A stretch of DNA of 64,000 nt from an uncultured candidatus Porisulfidus sp. (GTDB lineage Bacteria; Pseudomonadota; Gammaproteobacteria; Poriferisulfidales; Poriferisulfidaceae): positions 1,794,235-1,858,234 of the forward strand of contig OZ251520.1 in assembly GCA_965242985.1 (NCBI GenBank). The letters are read 5' to 3'. The notes under the pieces were generated by a model that saw only the letters and a program-made list of their open reading frames with translations, made no database searches and was not told where the DNA came from. A program made the position numbers and the translations under genes. Below are positions 5,081-47,976 of this stretch, piece after piece; the first letter of the stretch is position 1; every line of letters begins with the position of its first letter.

Positions 5081-5530
5081 ATGGACGAACTCGCCTACCG
5101 CGACACCTACCACGCGATCAACGAGCGGCGCTGCTGGTTCGAGAAGGCCCTCAACGCCCGCGCCTGCGACTGCCGCCTGAAGCGCCGCTTCCATCTGGCC
5201 GACCGCGAGGGGGTCGCCTGCACCGACGCGGACGCGCACCGGACCTGCGAAGCCTGGCTCGAGCGCCTGCGCCGCGAGGCGCGCCTGGCGCTGGCGCAGG
5301 GCGCGACTCCGGAAATCCTGCCGCACCGCCTGGAGGCCAAGGTGCAGGCCGGCGGCATGCGCGGTCTGGCGGAGCTGCTGGAGGAGCCGGACGAAAAACC
5401 CGAGGTGTCCGCCCTGCTGGCGCGCGCCGCGGACCGCTACGGCGGACTGGCGCGCGTTCCCCTCGCCGGCGTGGCCGCGGCGGTCGCGGCCTACGAGCCC
5501 CGGCGCCGTCCCGCCCGCAAGCGCCCTTAG
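5081..5530 (+). CDS. Hypothetical protein with N-terminal Cys cluster
   Basis: 149 aa; five Cys in RRCWFEKALNARACDCR...GVACTDADAHRTC. Confidence 0.7.
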   Translation: MDELAYRDTYHAINERRCWFEKALNARACDCRLKRRFHLADREGVACTDADAHRTCEAWLERLRREARLALAQGATPEILPHRLEAKVQAGGMRGLAELLEEPDEKPEVSALLARAADRYGGLARVPLAGVAAAVAAYEPRRRPARKRP

Positions 5531-41953: not shown

Positions 41954-42625
41954 ATGGACCTGCCCCGCCGCCTGACCGCCGAGTTCCTCGGCGCGCTGTT
42001 CCTGCTCGCCGCCGTGGTCGGCTCCGGGATCATGGCCGACGGCCTCGCCGGCGGCAACGACGCGGTCGCCCTGCTCGGCAACACGCTCGCCACCGGCGCC
42101 ATGCTGGCGGTGCTGATCCTGATCTTCGGCGGGATCTCCGGCGCCCACTTCAACCCGGCCGTGACCTTCGCTTTCCTGCTGCGCCGGGAGCTCGCGCCCG
42201 GCGCCGCCGCCGCCTACGCGGCGGCGCAGTTCGCCGGCGCCTTCGCCGGGGTGCTGCTGGCGCACCTGATGTTCGGCGAGCCCGCGCTGTCCGCGTCGCA
42301 GAACGCCCGCGCCGGGATCGGCGTGTGGACCGGCGAGCTGGTCGCCGCCTTCGGCCTGACCGCGACCATCCTCGGCTGCCTGCGCCGCCGCCCGGAGGCG
42401 CTGCCGTGGGCGGTCGGCCTGTTCATCGCCGCCGGCTACTGGTTCACCTCCTCGACCTCGTTCGCCAACCCGGCGGTGACCGCGGCGCGCGCCTTCACCG
42501 ACACCTTCACCGGCATCCGCCCGCAGGACGCGCCGATGTTCATCGTCATGCAGTTCGCCGGCGCGGCGCTGGCGGTCGCGGTGTTCGGCTGGCTGCTCGG
42601 CCGCGGCGCTCAGTCCGCCAGGTAG
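41954..42625 (+). CDS. MIP/aquaporin family channel (AqpS-like)
   Basis: AVVGSGIMA, ISGAHFNPAV, YWFTSSTSFANPAVT. Confidence 0.88.
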   Translation: MDLPRRLTAEFLGALFLLAAVVGSGIMADGLAGGNDAVALLGNTLATGAMLAVLILIFGGISGAHFNPAVTFAFLLRRELAPGAAAAYAAAQFAGAFAGVLLAHLMFGEPALSASQNARAGIGVWTGELVAAFGLTATILGCLRRRPEALPWAVGLFIAAGYWFTSSTSFANPAVTAARAFTDTFTGIRPQDAPMFIVMQFAGAALAVAVFGWLLGRGAQSAR

Positions 42626-43239
42626 GCGGCGAGCGCGGCGCGCGCCTCCTCGATCCCCAGCCCGGTCCGCGCCGACACCGCCTGCAGCGGGCGCTCCGCC
42701 CCCAGTTCGCGGCGCGCCGCGTCGAGCGCGGCGCGGCGCCGGCCCGACGGCAGCTTGTCGGCCTTGTTGAGCAGCAGGTGCAGCGGCAGCCCGGCGGCCG
42801 CGCACCAGTCCAGCAGCTGGCGGTCGGCGTCCCGCGGCGGATGGCGGATGTCCATGATCAGCACCAGCCGCGCCAGGCTGGCGCGGCGCTGCAGGTAGGC
42901 CTCCACCAGCCGCCGCCAGGACTCGCGCTCGGCGCGCGGCGCCCGCGCGTAGCCGTAGCCCGGCAGGTCCACCAGCCGGCGTTCGCCGCCCAGGTCGAAG
43001 AAGTGCAGCAGCCGGGTGCGCCCGGGCGCGGCGCCGACGCGCGCCAGCGCGCGGCGGCCGCACAGCGCGTTGATCAGGCTCGACTTGCCGACGTTGGAGC
43101 GCCCGGCGAAAGCGAGCTCCCGGCCCCGGTCCGGCGGGCAGTCGCGGAGTTCGGCGTGGCCGGACCGGTAGGCGGCGCGGCGCAGGTCGGGCGGCGCGGC
43201 GGCGGCGCGGGCGGCGGCGGGCGGCGGCGCGGCGGACAC
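42610..43239 (-). CDS. engB: Ribosome biogenesis GTPase EngB/YihA
   Basis: FAGRSNVGKSSLIN, DLPGYGY, NKAD; start uncertain. Confidence 0.93.
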   Translation of the reverse strand: MSAAPPPAAARAAAAPPDLRRAAYRSGHAELRDCPPDRGRELAFAGRSNVGKSSLINALCGRRALARVGAAPGRTRLLHFFDLGGERRLVDLPGYGYARAPRAERESWRRLVEAYLQRRASLARLVLIMDIRHPPRDADRQLLDWCAAAGLPLHLLLNKADKLPSGRRRAALDAARRELGAERPLQAVSARTGLGIEEARAALAAYLAD

Positions 43240-43310
43240 TGCGGAGACGGGGGGTGCTGGTACAATGCGCCGCGATTGTAGTGGATGCCGCGCGCGCCGC
43301 GCCGATTCGC

Positions 43311-43937
43311 ATGACCCGATTCCGCTTCTGGGCCCTCTTGGTCCCCGGCCTGCTCGCGCCGTGGGCGCTGCCGGCGGCGGGCGATCCGGAAGCCGGCCGC
43401 GCCAAGGCCGGCGTCTGCGCGGCCTGCCACGGCCCGGACGGCAACAGCGTCAACCCCGAGTGGCCGAGCCTGGCGGCCCAGGGCGCGCCCTACCTGGCGA
43501 CCCAGATGCGGCGCTTCCGCGACGGCGAGCGCGAGAACGCGCTGATGGCGCCGCTGTCGGCGGCGCTGTCCGACCAGGACATCCTCGACCTCGCGGCCTA
43601 CTACGCGGCGCAGGCGCCGAAGCTCGGCGCCGCGCGCGCCGAAGAGCCGCTGCTGCGGCTCGGCGAGACCATCTACCGCGGCGGCATCCTCGACCGGAAG
43701 GTGCCGGCGTGCATCGGCTGCCACGGCCCGGGCGGCGCCGGCAACGAGCCGGCCGAGTTCCCGCGCCTGTCCGGCCAGCACGCGGCCTACACCATGCTGC
43801 AGCTCAAATCCTTCCGCGCGGGCTTCGAGCCGCACAAGGAGCACGTCCGCCAGAACTCGATGATGAACGCCATCGCCGCGCGCCTCAGCGACCGCGAGAT
43901 CGAGGCGGTGTCGCACTACGTCTCCGGCCTGTACTGA
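43311..43937 (+). CDS. Diheme cytochrome c4
   Basis: Signal peptide plus two heme motifs CAACH and CIGCH. Confidence 0.92.
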   Translation: MTRFRFWALLVPGLLAPWALPAAGDPEAGRAKAGVCAACHGPDGNSVNPEWPSLAAQGAPYLATQMRRFRDGERENALMAPLSAALSDQDILDLAAYYAAQAPKLGAARAEEPLLRLGETIYRGGILDRKVPACIGCHGPGGAGNEPAEFPRLSGQHAAYTMLQLKSFRAGFEPHKEHVRQNSMMNAIAARLSDREIEAVSHYVSGLY

Positions 43938-44587
43938 TGCGCCGCGCGCTCCTCGCCGCTTTCGCCTGGGCGCTGGCCGCGGCCGCCCACGCCGACCAGC
44001 CGGACGGCGAAGACGGCGCGGCGGAGCCGCGGTACCGGGCCGACGCACACTACGCGGTCCTCGCCGAACCCGACGCGGCGCCGGCGGACGCCGGCGCCCT
44101 GCCGGAGGTGCTCGACTTCTTCTGGTACGGCTGCCCGCACTGCTTCCGGCTCGAGCCGCACCTCGCCGCGTGGACCGAACAGCGCGCGGACGCCGTGCGG
44201 GTGCGGCACGTCCCGGCGGTGTTCAGCAAGCGCTGGGTGCCGGGGGCGCGGCTGTACTACGCGCTCGAGGAACTGGGGCGGACCGACCTGCACGCCGCGG
44301 TGTTCCGCCTGCGGCACGAGCAGGGGCGGAAGCTCCAGAGCGCCGACGGCATCGCCCGCATGCTGGAGCCGTTCGGGGTGGAGCCGGCGGCGTTCGCCGC
44401 CGCGTTCCGCGGCGAGGCGGTCAACGGGAAGATGGCGGCCTCCGAGGAGCTCCCCAAGCACTACGGCATCACCGGCGTCCCGGCGCTGGTGGTGGCCGGG
44501 CGCTACCTGGTCACCACCGGCCACGCCGGCGGCGACTATCCCGAGATGCTGGCCATCGCCGGCTGGCTGCTCGAACGCCGGCCCTGA
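43937..44587 (+). CDS. dsbA: Thiol:disulfide interchange protein DsbA
   Basis: FFWYGCPHC, ITGVPALVVAGRY; TGATG overlap with cytochrome c4. Confidence 0.92.
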   Translation: MRRALLAAFAWALAAAAHADQPDGEDGAAEPRYRADAHYAVLAEPDAAPADAGALPEVLDFFWYGCPHCFRLEPHLAAWTEQRADAVRVRHVPAVFSKRWVPGARLYYALEELGRTDLHAAVFRLRHEQGRKLQSADGIARMLEPFGVEPAAFAAAFRGEAVNGKMAASEELPKHYGITGVPALVVAGRYLVTTGHAGGDYPEMLAIAGWLLERRP

Positions 44588-44618
44588 ACCCGCGGCCGGC
44601 CGCGCCGCCGGCGCACGC

Positions 44619-44654
44619 AAAAAAAAAACGGGCGGATGATGCTTCATCCGCCCG
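44619..44654 (-). terminator. Rho-independent terminator for a minus-strand transcript
   Basis: 11-bp perfect stem CGGGCGGATGA/TCATCCGCCCG with 4-nt loop; A10 tract at 44619-44628 gives a U10 tail on the minus strand. Confidence 0.85.
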
Positions 44655-44759
44655 CCTCACTAACCACCAACTAGGAGTAAGGTGGGACGGCCTTTATCAG
44701 AGAGGGCTAGAAAGGCCGCCCCCGCGACGGCCGACAGGGGATCGGCGCATTCGCGTTGG
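44619..44759 (-). ncRNA. Candidate ~140-nt sRNA (Spot 42/ErsA-like position)
   Basis: Lies between a sigmaE-like promoter and an intrinsic terminator; two stem-loops with pyrimidine-rich loops; no convincing minus-strand ORF. Confidence 0.5.
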
Positions 44760-44764
44760 GTTAT

Positions 44765-44793
44765 TGTGACCGAACGGAAGCCGGAAAAGTTCC
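44765..44793 (-). promoter_or_regulatory. sigmaE/AlgU-like promoter (GGAACTT-16 bp-GTCACA)
   Basis: -35 at 44787-44793 and -10 at 44765-44770 on the minus strand; matches the RpoE consensus GGAACTT-N15/16-GTCxAA with one -10 mismatch. Confidence 0.6.
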
Positions 44794-44863
44794 GCCGCGC
44801 TGCCAGCACTTGCGGGACGCGCTTGGTAGAATCGCCGCCCGCCGCCCGCACCGGAACCCCCGC

Positions 44864-45274
44864 GTGGCCCGCCGCACGCCGACCCTGCAGGACATCGCCG
44901 ACCTGGCCGAGCGCGCCTGGGCCGGGATCCCGCGCCGCCTGGCGAAGCACGCCGAGGCGGTGTCGATCCGGGTCGAGGACCTGCCGGACGAAGACGTGTG
45001 CCGGGAGATGGAGCTCGACAGCCCCTACGACCTGCTCGGCCTGTACCAGGGCGTGAGCCTGGCCGAGAAGTCGGTGGCCGACTGGCCGCAGGCGCCGGAC
45101 CTGGTGTTCCTCTACCGCAAGCCGCTCCTGGCGCAGTGGGCGGAGGACGGCGGCAGCCTCGCCTGCCTGGTGCGCGAGGTGCTGCTGCACGAGATCGGCC
45201 ACCACTTCGGCTTCTCCGACGACGACATGGAGCGCATCTGCGCCGAGGCCCGGCGCGAGGCGCGGCGCGGCTAG
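44864..45274 (+). CDS. Zincin-like metallopeptidase family protein
   Basis: YDLLGLYQG, LYRKPL, VLLHEIGHHFG (HExxH); GTG start at 44864. Confidence 0.88.
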   Translation: MARRTPTLQDIADLAERAWAGIPRRLAKHAEAVSIRVEDLPDEDVCREMELDSPYDLLGLYQGVSLAEKSVADWPQAPDLVFLYRKPLLAQWAEDGGSLACLVREVLLHEIGHHFGFSDDDMERICAEARREARRG

Positions 45275-47976
45275 CCGCGCGCCTCCTCCCAGTTCGGCCC
45301 GACCCCGGCGTCGACCACCAGCGGCACCCGCAGCTCGGCGGCCGCCTCCATCCGCGCGCGCGTCGCCGCGGCCACGGCCGCGGCCTGCTCCGCCGGCGCC
45401 TCCAGCACCAGCTCGTCGTGCACCTGCAGCAGCAGCCGGCAGTCCGGCCAGTCCCGCTCCAGCTCGGCGTGCAGGTCGATCATGGCGCGCTTGATGACGT
45501 CGGCCGCGGTGCCCTGCATGGGCGCGTTGATCGCCGTGCGCTCGGCGTACTGGCGGCGGTTGCGGTCGCGCGCGCGGATGTCCGGCAGGTACAGCCGCCG
45601 GCCCCAGACGGTCTCCACGAAGCCGCGCTCGCGCGCCTGCGCCCGGGTGCGGTCCATGTATTCCCGCACTTTCGGGTAGCGCGCGAAGTAGGCGTCGACG
45701 TAGGCCTCGGCCTCGGGCCGGGCGCAGCCGAGCTGCTTCGCCAGCCCGAACGGGCTCATGCCGTACATGAGGCCGAAGTTGATCGCCTTGGCGGCGCGGC
45801 GCTGCGCGGAGGTCACCGCCGCCGGCGCGGCCCCGAACACCTCGGCGGCGGTGGCGCGGTGCACGTCGGCGCCGGCCGCGAACGCGGCGCGCAGCGCCGG
45901 GTCGCCGGAGATGTGGGCCATGATGCGCAGCTCGATCTGCGAGTAGTCGGCGGCCACCAGCGCGCGGCCGGGCGCGGCGACGAAGGCGCGCCGCACGCGC
46001 CGGCCCTGCTCGGTGCGGATCGGGATGTTCTGCAGGTTGGGGTCGGAGGAGGACAGCCGCCCGGTGGCGGTGCCGGCCTGGTGGAAGGAGGTGTGCAGGC
46101 GCCCGGTGTCGGGGTGCAGCATCTGCGGCAGCTTGCGCAGGTAGGTGGACAGCAGCTTGGCGCGCTGGCGGTGCTCCAGGAGCATGCGCGGCAACTCGTC
46201 CCGCTTGGCCAGCTCCTCGAGCACGTCCTCGGCGGTGGAGGGAGCGCCGGTCGGCGTCTTGCGCAGCGGCGCGAGCCCGCGCTCCGCGAACAGCACCTGC
46301 TGCAGGTCGCGCGGGGCGTTCAGGTTGAACTCGCGCCCGCAGACCGCGAAGATGCGCTCCCGCAGCTCCTCCTGCGCCGCGTCCAGCTCCGCGGTCTGCG
46401 CCGCCAGCGCCGGCACGTCGAGCGCCACCCCGGCGCGCTCCATCGCGCCCAGCACCGCCGCCAGCGGCAGCTCCAGCTCGCGGTACAGCCGCAGCAGCGC
46501 GGGCTCGCCCTGCAGCCGCGGCCACAGGCGCCGGTGCAGGCGCAGGGTCATGTCGGCGTCCTCGGCCGCGTACGGCGCGGCGCGCGCCAGCGGCACCGCG
46601 TCGAAGCTCACCTGCTTGCGCCCGCTGCCCGCCACCTCGGCATAGCGGGTGGTCTCCTCGTTCAGGTACACCCGCGCCAGGTCGTCCAGGTTGTGGCGCG
46701 GCGCGCCGCCCGGCGCCGAGTGCAGCACGTAGGACTCGAGCATGCTGTCGTGCACCGGCCCGGCCAGTTCGACGCCGGCGCGCGCCAAGACGGCGCGGTC
46801 GTACTTCAGGTGGTGGCCGAGCTTGGTCATCTCCGGGTCGGCCAAGAGCGGGCCGAGCGCGGCCAGCGCCGTTTCCCGCGGCAACTGCGGCGGGTCCTGC
46901 GGGTCGGTGTGCCCGAACGGCACGTAGGCGGCGCGCCCCGGCGCCGTCGCCAGCGACACGCCGACCAGCTCGGCGCGGTTCGGGTCGACCGAGGTGGTCT
47001 CGGTGTCGACCGCGAACACGCCCGCGGCGCGCGCCCGGGCCACCCAGTCGGCGAGCGCGGCCTCGTCCCGCACCAGCGCGTAGTCGCGCACCGTGGCGGC
47101 GCCCTCCTCCGGCGCGCCGGCGTTCAGCTCCTTCCAGAACTGCCGCAGGCCGTACTCCTCGTACAGCTCGCGCAGCGCGTCGCGGTCGGGCGCGCCGGGC
47201 GCCAGCGCGGCCAGCGGCGTGTCCAGCTCCAGGTCGCAGCGGATAGTGACCAGCTCCGCGTACAGCGGCAGCCGCTCGAGGCTGTCGCGCAACTGCTGCC
47301 CGACCGCGCCCGCGATCTCCGCCGCGTGCTCGACCACGCCGGCCAGCGAGCCGTAGCGCCGCAGCCAGCGCGCCGCGGTCTTCGGCCCGACCTTGGGCAC
47401 GCCGGGGACGTTGTCGGCGGCGTCGCCGGCCAGCGTCAGGTAGTCGACGATGCGCTCCGGCGGCACCTGGAACTTGCGCTCCACCCCGGCCGCGTCCAGC
47501 GGCTCCTTGTCGGCGTCGGCCAGCGCCACGCCGCCGCCGACCAGCTGCGCCATGTCCTTGTCGGCCGAGAGGATGACCACCGCCAGCCCCGCCTCGCGGC
47601 CCTGCCGCGCCAGGGTGCCGATGACGTCGTCGGCCTCGACCCCCGGCACGCGCAGCAGCGGCAGGCCGAGCGCGGCGATGATCCGGCACAGCGGGTCGAT
47701 CTGCGCGCGCAGCTCCGGGTCCATCGGCGGCCGGTTGGCCTTGTACGCGGGATACAGCTCGTGGCGGAAGTTCTTCCCCGGCGCGTCCAGCACCACCGCC
47801 ACCCGCTCCGGGCGGACGCGGCGCAGCTGCTTCTGGATGGTGTTGACCGCGCCGTACAGCGCGCCGGTCGGCCGCCCGTGGTGGTCGGTGAAGCGGGCGT
47901 GCACGTGGTGCGCCCGGTGCAGGTACACCGAGGCGTCGACCAGAAGCAGCCCGGGGCGCGCAGGAGTGTCCGCCAT
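45271..47976 (-). CDS. polA: DNA polymerase I
   Basis: LVDAS, GVEADDVIG, GDAADNVPGV, DTET, TGRLSSSDPNLQNIP, DYSQIELR, AKAINFG, LQVHDEL. Confidence 0.98.
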   Translation of the reverse strand: MADTPARPGLLLVDASVYLHRAHHVHARFTDHHGRPTGALYGAVNTIQKQLRRVRPERVAVVLDAPGKNFRHELYPAYKANRPPMDPELRAQIDPLCRIIAALGLPLLRVPGVEADDVIGTLARQGREAGLAVVILSADKDMAQLVGGGVALADADKEPLDAAGVERKFQVPPERIVDYLTLAGDAADNVPGVPKVGPKTAARWLRRYGSLAGVVEHAAEIAGAVGQQLRDSLERLPLYAELVTIRCDLELDTPLAALAPGAPDRDALRELYEEYGLRQFWKELNAGAPEEGAATVRDYALVRDEAALADWVARARAAGVFAVDTETTSVDPNRAELVGVSLATAPGRAAYVPFGHTDPQDPPQLPRETALAALGPLLADPEMTKLGHHLKYDRAVLARAGVELAGPVHDSMLESYVLHSAPGGAPRHNLDDLARVYLNEETTRYAEVAGSGRKQVSFDAVPLARAAPYAAEDADMTLRLHRRLWPRLQGEPALLRLYRELELPLAAVLGAMERAGVALDVPALAAQTAELDAAQEELRERIFAVCGREFNLNAPRDLQQVLFAERGLAPLRKTPTGAPSTAEDVLEELAKRDELPRMLLEHRQRAKLLSTYLRKLPQMLHPDTGRLHTSFHQAGTATGRLSSSDPNLQNIPIRTEQGRRVRRAFVAAPGRALVAADYSQIELRIMAHISGDPALRAAFAAGADVHRATAAEVFGAAPAAVTSAQRRAAKAINFGLMYGMSPFGLAKQLGCARPEAEAYVDAYFARYPKVREYMDRTRAQARERGFVETVWGRRLYLPDIRARDRNRRQYAERTAINAPMQGTAADVIKRAMIDLHAELERDWPDCRLLLQVHDELVLEAPAEQAAAVAAATRARMEAAAELRVPLVVDAGVGPNWEEARG

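Follow-up and report, generated by a model that had tools for sequence, protein, structure and literature searches.

A 64-kb window of DNA from an uncultured candidatus Porisulfidus sp. (the whole stretch of 64,000 nucleotides (nt) analysed here, from contig OZ251520.1) carries, on its minus strand downstream of polA, a real, conserved, structured and non-coding unit with a sigmaE-type promoter and a terminator of its own. The unit (44793→44619) lies in the 276-bp gap between dsbA and a gene for a Zincin_1 metallopeptidase (hereafter zincin). We consider it probable that this unit is a gene in its own right and encodes a trans-acting small RNA (sRNA) of ~137 nt, which depends on a sigma factor of the sigmaE/AlgU type and whose loops pair with G-rich ribosome-binding sites. 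The sequence features, conservation, structural covariation, synteny, and lack of coding potential were observed, and transcription, sigma dependence, the pairing mechanism, and the targets are inferred.

Promoter, terminator and conservation of the unit

An earlier reading, made from the sequence only (the sequence-only reading), had proposed a minus-strand promoter of the form GGAACTT-16-GTCACA, and this element is present at the head of the unit (Table 1). Within the window, the pattern GGAACTT-N15/16-GTCNNA occurs once, against 0.01 occurrences expected, and a looser AlgU-style pattern was likewise found only at the sRNA candidate. The consensus used for comparison was that of E. coli sigmaE, which consists of a -35 element GGAACTT(TT) and a -10 element (T/C)GGTCAAAA that are ~16 nt apart, a spacing of 16 nt being the preferred one (PMC1540707, PMC1312014). 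The window promoter agrees with this consensus (RpoE/AlgU; extracytoplasmic function (ECF) type ECF02), and the agreement extends to the flanking TT and to CGG ahead of TCA. Transcription from the predicted start would yield the RNA of ~137 nt.

Relatives were gathered through contigs encoding close homologs of zincin or polA and, in addition, by one metagenome pattern scan. The same unit was found at 13 distinct related loci of uncultured marine and sponge gammaproteobacteria, ten of which were retrieved by the neighbouring proteins (zincin or polA) only, without the promoter motif. The -35 box GGAACTT is invariant in all 13 loci, while the spacers and flanks vary freely. Since ten loci were fetched by proteins alone, this conservation is not an artefact of selection. 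The -10 boxes of the relatives, located at 15–16 nt, are GTCATA, GTCTGA, GTTTGA, GTCTCA, GTCCCA, GTCCTA, GCCTAA, or GCCTAT (GTCACA in the window), and their summary form is G(T/C)Cnn(A/T). In the metagenome scan (GGAACTT..GCCCTCT..CCACCTT), the true members among the matches listed were L157, L160, and L166, and nearly all of the others were chance matches.

The unit is intact between dsbA and zincin in the window, L081, and L082, directly after polA and before dsbA in L084, L209, and L214, and between groEL and zincin in L086, and it is co-oriented with polA in every case. The retention of a promoter-like element, a covarying structure, and an intrinsic terminator in relatives with rearranged neighbours bears out the earlier proposal of an sRNA. 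The remark that no minus-strand gene ends nearby is also accurate: polA ends 478 nt upstream of the -35 box with zincin, on the plus strand, in between, and the minus strand downstream of the candidate holds only the antisense of dsbA. With polA this far off and an opposite-strand gene intervening, the terminator has no coding gene to serve. A T-run follows the terminator hairpin on the minus strand and none is present on the plus strand, indicating that the terminator is oriented for a minus-strand RNA. The terminator core GGGCGGA...UCCGCC is kept in most relatives.

The same features might be explained without any separate transcript, if the hairpins and the terminator served to end read-through or to insulate the convergent dsbA and zincin/polA genes and the promoter motif were inert. 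The position of the terminator, 32 nt beyond the dsbA stop codon, is in line with this explanation, and the sole RNA contig on a relative (L166, described below) has its start close to the end of polA, before the predicted promoter. We nevertheless regard it as very improbable. In addition to the intervening opposite-strand gene and the strand-specific T-run, an inert motif would not stay invariant over ~7 lineages with differing spacers, and in mere terminators the loops would not be conserved while the stems covary.

Fold, covariation and coding potential

A 142-nt RNA from the unit was predicted to fold at -72.3 kcal/mol, compared with -48.2 ± 3.7 kcal/mol in shuffled sequences (z = -6.44; none of 200 shuffles was as good). 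The predicted fold comprises four hairpins, namely three stem-loops (SL0, SL1, and SL2, numbered from the 5' end) and the terminator hairpin, for which the terminator scan gave 15 pairs including 8 G-C pairs. The two stem-loops and the terminator with U10 that the sequence-only reading had described were all found. That account was incomplete in missing SL0 with its CCCCU loop, which ranks among the two most strongly conserved segments of the RNA. The apical loops are rich in pyrimidine, particularly C (AUCCCCUG, GCCCUCUCU, and ACUCCUA).

The loops of the two 5' hairpins (GAUCCCCUG and AAGCCCUCUG) are conserved among the relatives. In the SL0 loop, CC.T is invariant within (G/C)AUCCCCUG, and the SL1 loop, the most conserved of the family, has the consensus AAGCCCUCUGUUU, in which C.CTCTG.T is invariant. 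The stems vary while these loop letters stay the same. Ten distinct sequences were aligned with a covariance model (alignment A4), and compensatory changes were found in 15 of the 25 pairs: nine of the 11 pairs of SL0 (helix 1) and six of the 14 pairs of SL1 (helices 2 and 3). Of the cells in A4, 88.4% can pair, compared with 31–44% when the partners are slid by 1–3 columns, and none of 500 shuffles of A4 reached any of the observed measures. R1, a covariance model covering SL0 and SL1, scored members at 61–92 bits and matched nothing else in 0.8 Mb. Outside the clade R1 yielded no member, and within it R1 missed the divergent L082, L207, and L208, whose membership shows only in promoter, terminator, and synteny. 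Strain variants in sponge metagenome runs were located in the promoter spacer (44773-44774; A>C and A>G) and in or just past the U-run of the terminator (44615 and 44619; A>G and a 1-nt deletion). The RNA body showed no variant, though only ~1 was expected there.

In one sub-lineage (L211, L212, and L215), the two-hairpin module is duplicated in tandem, giving an sRNA of ~270 nt with a single promoter and a single terminator (Table 1). At L214 (5323-5440, plus strand), the family is represented by a short form in which ACCUUUUUCUUU comes straight after the second hairpin; this hairpin may itself serve as the terminator of an RNA of ~85 nt.

Several hairpins with the same kind of loop are repeated, and the tandem module of some relatives is typical of sponge RNAs, which raises the question of whether the structured RNA mainly binds or titrates a protein or the ribosome rather than pairing with the ribosome-binding sites of mRNAs. 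The terminator stem GGGCGGA..UCCGCC is also more conserved than a terminator requires. On the other side, the loops of the window RNA lack the GGA motif of the CsrA/RsmA sponges, the neighbourhood suggests no protein partner, and the same C-rich-loop design acts on mRNAs with G-rich motifs near their translation starts in sX13, an sRNA of Xanthomonadaceae (PMC3771888). We hold such binding or titration to be improbable.

Among the findings that would overturn it, the sequence-only reading had named that a plus-strand open reading frame (ORF) at 44682 is the translated element. An AGGAG does precede its GTG start (AGGAG-N-GTG), and the frame stays open across 124 codons. The ORF overlaps the conserved zincin gene in another frame, however, and long spurious ORFs are expected at ~70% G+C. 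It was kept in no relative examined: in the closest relative, whose zincin is 90% identical, only an unrelated frame of 46 codons with a different start is present, and in the other relatives unrelated short frames occupy the position. In addition, indels of 1 to 3 nt separate the window and the closest relative inside the element. Translation of this ORF thus has virtually no claim to explain the locus, and the element, to judge from the comparison of sequences, is non-coding. A 14-codon AUG frame within the RNA was also considered and rejected, as it lacks a Shine-Dalgarno sequence and the relatives do not have it.

Regulation, mode of action and gene neighbourhood

Envelope-stress sigma factors can only activate genes, and the repressing half of the response is left to the known sRNAs under their control (MicA, RybB, MicL, and ErsA). 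We propose that an ECF sigma factor of the RpoE/AlgU type would read the promoter of the window RNA, which would then be made under envelope stress and end at its own intrinsic terminator. The RNA would fold into three hairpins and the terminator, presenting C-rich apical loops, and these loops, which resemble the anti-Shine-Dalgarno sequence, would most likely pair with the G-rich ribosome-binding regions of several mRNAs, lowering their translation or stability. A multi-loop C-rich seed design of this kind has been demonstrated by experiment in sX13 of Xanthomonas. The RNA would then exert the repression within the envelope-stress regulon, as ErsA does in Pseudomonas and MicA, RybB, and MicL do in enterobacteria. 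The unit is a well-supported candidate for this repressing half in an uncultured, very GC-rich symbiont lineage with a small genome, in which RNA regulation has so far been undescribed.

Several observations weigh against this proposal. The link to envelope stress is an extrapolation, given that many ECF sigma factors use promoters of the GGAAC/GTC type. The sequencing runs that hold the window sequence (X1, X2, and X4) show an even, DNA-like depth. A metatranscriptome contig from run X22 covers L166 5497-5692 at a depth of ~6; it runs from ~95 nt ahead of the predicted promoter to the middle of the RNA, and counts neither for nor against the predicted start. This contig could be read-through, DNA carry-over, or the product of a second start. 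Runs X25-X28 gave no match at 95% identity. With regard to structure, the 15 compensatory pairs come from an alignment that had been fitted to the structure of the model and is biased in its favour; a MAFFT-only alignment already contained 14 compensatory pairs of the 25. The minimum-energy fold of the window RNA buries the CUCCU loop of SL2 in an alternative helix. Furthermore, SL2 varies between lineages, and its CUCCU loop is not a constant feature of the family. L081 retains the hairpin, the second module of L211, L212, and L215 has it with another stem (AUCAAC/GUUGGU), UCCUCCCC takes the place of its loop in L086, and neither L166 nor L214 has it. Between L084 and L209, the corresponding stem shows a compensatory exchange of A-U for U-A. 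The sequence-only reading had placed its emphasis on this CUCCU, which is present in the window and is identical to the anti-Shine-Dalgarno core. The emphasis holds for some lineages only, and conservation is strongest in the loops AUCCCCUG and GCCCUCU.

In another explanation, the sRNA gene is real and its promoter is read by another ECF sigma factor or constitutively, so that the RNA is no regulator of envelope stress. GGAAC at -35 and GTC/CGT at -10 are common to many group IV sigma factors (PMC1540707), and sX13, the closest architecture, is reported to be constitutive (PMC3771888). The match in the window extends beyond GGAAC, however, to the full GGAACTTTT and CGGTCAnAA, with the spacing of 16–17 nt from GGAACTT to TCA that is typical of RpoE/AlgU (PMC1312014), and in Pseudomonas the corresponding locus depends on sigma22 (PMC13613067). 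We consider this explanation unlikely, and favour dependence on a sigma factor of the sigmaE/AlgU type.

The gene order in the window is engB(-), cytochrome c4(+), dsbA(+), sRNA candidate(-), zincin(+), and polA(-). The organism is a very GC-rich uncultured gammaproteobacterium present in sponge and marine metagenomes. Its polA product is 60–67% identical to a set of proteins from metagenome-assembled genomes (MAGs) and 56–58% identical to those of named relatives in Chromatiales/Ectothiorhodospirales. The convergent zincin and polA genes have overlapping stop codons (zincin ends at 45274 and polA at 45271), and the same tail-to-tail overlap of 4 nt was observed in L081, L082, L086, and L211. 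An apparent extended -10 promoter of the zincin gene (TGGTAGAAT) at 44825-44833 on the plus strand stands back to back with the promoter of the sRNA, whose -35 box is ~30 nt away.

Table 1. Coordinates of the sRNA candidate, its neighbours, and the RNAs and promoters at other loci
Feature	Sequence	Positions	Strand	Basis or remark
-35 box GGAACTT, then TT (extended GGAACTTTT)	Window	44793..44787	-	Read from sequence
-10 box GTCACA (context CGGTCACAA)	Window	44770..44765	-	16-nt spacer after -35
Predicted transcription start	Window	44756..44759	-	6-9 nt past -10 hexamer; inferred from sigmaE spacing rules, 5/6-nt discriminator (PMC1312014)
SL0, 5' hairpin, apical AUCCCCUGU, CCCCU unpaired in minimum-energy fold	Window	44723..44755	-	Fold; helix 1 of A4
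SL1, 12-bp stem GGGGCGGCCUUU/AAAGGCCGUCCC, apical CUAGCCCUCUCUGAU	Window	44684..44722	-	Fold; helices 2 and 3 of A4
SL2, CCACC/GGUGG stem, loop UUACUCCUAGUU	Window	44664..44685	-	Read from sequence
Terminator, GC-rich stem GGCGGGCGGAUGA/UCAUCCGCCCG, loop AGCA, then U10 (44628..44619)	Window	44619..44658	-	Terminator scan and fold
engB-type GTPase	Window	42610-43239	-	Pfam
Dihaem cytochrome c (cytochrome c4)	Window	43254-43937	+	Pfam
dsbA	Window	43937-44587	+	Pfam
Zincin_1 metallopeptidase	Window	44864-45274	+	Pfam
polA	Window	48099→45271	-	Pfam
Duplicated-module sRNA	L211	541-837	-	Second-copy loops ACCUCCAUU, GAAGCCCUCUGCUU
Duplicated-module sRNA	L212	112-415	-	As L211
Duplicated-module sRNA	L215	5670-5940	+	As L211
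sX13-like RNA	L004	3249-3393	+	Just after polA
sX13-like RNA	L007	5232-5386	+	Just after polA
sX13-like RNA	L008	3900-4045	+	Just after polA
sX13-like RNA	L011	3444-3582	+	Just after polA
sX13-like RNA	L012	5300-5407	+	Just after polA
sX13-like RNA	L020	4941-5085	+	Just after polA
sX13-like RNA	L042	5028-5176	+	Just after polA
sX13-like RNA	L060	5114-5258	+	Just after polA
sX13-like RNA	L065	2534-2679	+	Just after polA
sX13-like RNA	L074	4921-5069	+	Just after polA
Tandem sX13-like copies	L007	5262-5384, 5516-5635, 5782-5895		L007 and L042: Salinisphaera shabanensis and a record titled Endozoicomonas sp. G2_2
Tandem sX13-like copies	L042	5058-5178, 5282-5396, 5497-5610		See L007
Partly sigmaE-like sX13 promoter	L001	5104-5131		
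Partly sigmaE-like sX13 promoter	L023	5385-5412		
Partly sigmaE-like sX13 promoter	L028	5141-5168		
Partly sigmaE-like sX13 promoter	L045	3786-3813		

The polA-downstream slot and comparison with known sRNAs

The statement that the candidate has no recognisable similarity to known sRNAs holds after a search with Rfam, whose models leave the window RNA and its relatives unmatched. No match to Spot 42 (RF00021), ErsA (RF01719), or sX13 (RF02232) was found in the whole window at the gathering threshold, nor in 44500-44950 (451 nt) at E ≤ 10, and the ErsA and sX13 models gave no match at gathering in L081, L082, and L084. As positive controls, the ErsA model scored 122 bits on Pseudomonas agarici (L079) and the sX13 model scored 141 bits on L027 and 107 bits on L006. 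A few weak Rfam matches (ctRNA_pGA1 at 24 bits, and others) were driven by the terminator, and none was meaningful. The candidate was further compared, by blastn and nhmmer, with 80 polA loci from high-GC bacteria, a set without close relatives, and no match was found. As the Spot 42, ErsA, and sX13 models are all unmatched, it is fair, as regards sequence, to speak of no similarity and of a new family.

The 80 loci had been retrieved with an out-of-frame translation of polA (45274-46600), which still retrieved the polA loci of dozens of high-GC bacteria at 40–57% 'identity'. Alternative frames are thus strongly conserved in GC-rich conserved genes, and caution is needed in claims of homology based on ORFs.

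The sequence-only reading had mentioned ErsA and Spot 42 and omitted sX13, whose architecture is the closest known. sX13 is an RNA of ~115 nt that always lies downstream of polA and has several stable hairpins with three C-rich apical loops; these loops repress mRNAs with G-rich motifs near translation starts, Hfq is not needed, and the RNA was reported to be exclusive to Xanthomonadaceae (PMC3771888). In the comparison set, ten gammaproteobacterial lineages outside Xanthomonadaceae and Pseudomonas have a sigmaE-like promoter 14–272 nt past the polA stop codon on the same strand. They include Ectothiorhodospiraceae, Woeseiaceae, Steroidobacteraceae, Salinisphaera, Marichromatium, and several MAGs. 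The promoter there has the form GGAAC.. N15-16 (G/C/T)TCnnA, and each is followed by an RNA of 110–130 nt with a 5' hairpin, a CCUCCCUGAG loop, a CCCCAAG loop, and a terminator (sX13-like RNAs; Table 1). The promoter regular expression was matched in 16 of 30 loci, against ~2.5 expected by our own estimate.

The Rfam sX13 model at gathering misses L007 and L042. We built a model (R2) from eight of the sX13-like RNAs, with no Pseudomonas sequence in it. R2 found true sX13 (L045 at E = 1.6e-4, L027 at 9.5e-4, and also L023, L006, and L028, with E up to 0.025), matched the Marichromatium RNA (L074) at E = 2.4e-5, and revealed three tandem sX13-like copies after polA in both L007 and L042 (59–88 bits). 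Its best match in P. agarici was weak (15.8 bits, E = 0.16 over 1.6 Mb) and fell, at L079 5163-5285, exactly on ErsA (5179-5294 according to Rfam), which hints that ErsA may be a distant relative of the sX13-like RNAs. On the window family, R2 was not significant (≤ 10 bits with filters off); with filters off, eight of 41 weak matches lay on sRNAs of this family, which is suggestive only. For the broad sX13-like set, RNAalifold on an alignment made with MAFFT was unsuccessful owing to misaligned stems. The Marichromatium RNA and the window family have in common an ordered pair of loops, CCCCUG ... AGCCCUC, a pattern that was picked after both sequences had been seen and that has ~5 chance occurrences in 1.6 Mb.

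We also observed that the sX13 genes of Aerolutibacter, Luteimonas, and two Lysobacterales MAGs have a partly sigmaE-like promoter, CGAAC(C/T)A-N15-GTCATA (GTCTCA in L023). In Xanthomonas and Pseudoxanthomonas, GAAC is lost and the -10 element is sigma70-like (TGnTATAT). The promoter class may thus have switched within the sX13 family.

Common descent of the window family, the sX13-like RNAs, and ErsA is plausible from these sequence comparisons, rather than demonstrated. In the fuller version of this idea, the window RNA, ErsA, and sX13 would be diverged descendants of one ancient sRNA gene downstream of polA, with a sigmaE-type promoter and C-rich apical loops, which most non-enteric Gammaproteobacteria would possess, with Spot 42 in the same slot in enterics. 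We offer this version tentatively, as a possibility of somewhat less than even chance. The slot downstream of polA, with a sigmaE-type promoter, is suggested to be a deeply conserved home of such regulators across Gammaproteobacteria. If this is true, ErsA and sX13, known from separate work on a human and a plant pathogen, would belong in a single evolutionary and mechanistic framework, and the reported restriction of sX13 to Xanthomonadaceae would need revision. Our literature search found no paper that names ErsA and sX13 together.

Among the known systems, the enteric sRNAs MicA, RybB, and MicL form the repressing arm of the envelope-stress response and act through a single 5' seed and Hfq instead of several C-rich apical loops. 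They resemble the window RNA in having near-consensus sigmaE promoters (consensus in PMC1312014) and Rho-independent terminators. They differ from it in that no sequence relationship and no Rfam match exist and the loci are different. Spot 42 (spf) is repressed by CRP, has a sigma70 promoter, and functions in carbon metabolism. Its gene lies directly downstream of polA and near engB/yihA (PMC3771888), a location that resembles that of the window RNA. Its Rfam model is unmatched in the window.

ErsA, which targets algC, oprD, and others, resembles the window RNA in several respects. ErsA in P. agarici and the candidate in the window both lie downstream of and co-oriented with polA, beside engB, cytochrome c4, and dsbA; the order at L079 is polA(+), ErsA(+), engB(-), cytochrome c(+), and dsbA(+). 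The promoters are of the same class (GGAACTA-N16-CTCAGA in P. agarici and GGAACTT-N16-GTCACA in the window), that of ErsA being sigma22-dependent in Pseudomonas (PMC13613067, PMC7565897), and both RNAs are similar in length with a strong terminator. The ErsA model, however, gives the window RNA no match in sequence or structure. Further differences lie in the hairpin layout and loop sequences and in the arrangement of the locus: the window clade has the engB-cytochrome c-dsbA block inverted relative to polA, and some of its members have the zincin gene between polA and the RNA.

With sX13, the window RNA family shares the position downstream of polA and the loop words CCCCUG and CUCC. Set against the three-CCCC-loop design of sX13, the window family has CCCC in SL0, CCCUCUCU in SL1, and, in some lineages only, CUCCU in SL2. 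The window RNA differs in that its terminator loop (AGCA) is not C-rich, in being matched neither by the Rfam model nor by the broader model R2, and in its sigmaE-type promoter, that of Xanthomonas sX13 being sigma70-like. Judged by its sequence, the window RNA would thus represent a new family of a known kind of regulator, a counterpart of ErsA in position and promoter class with a design like that of sX13.

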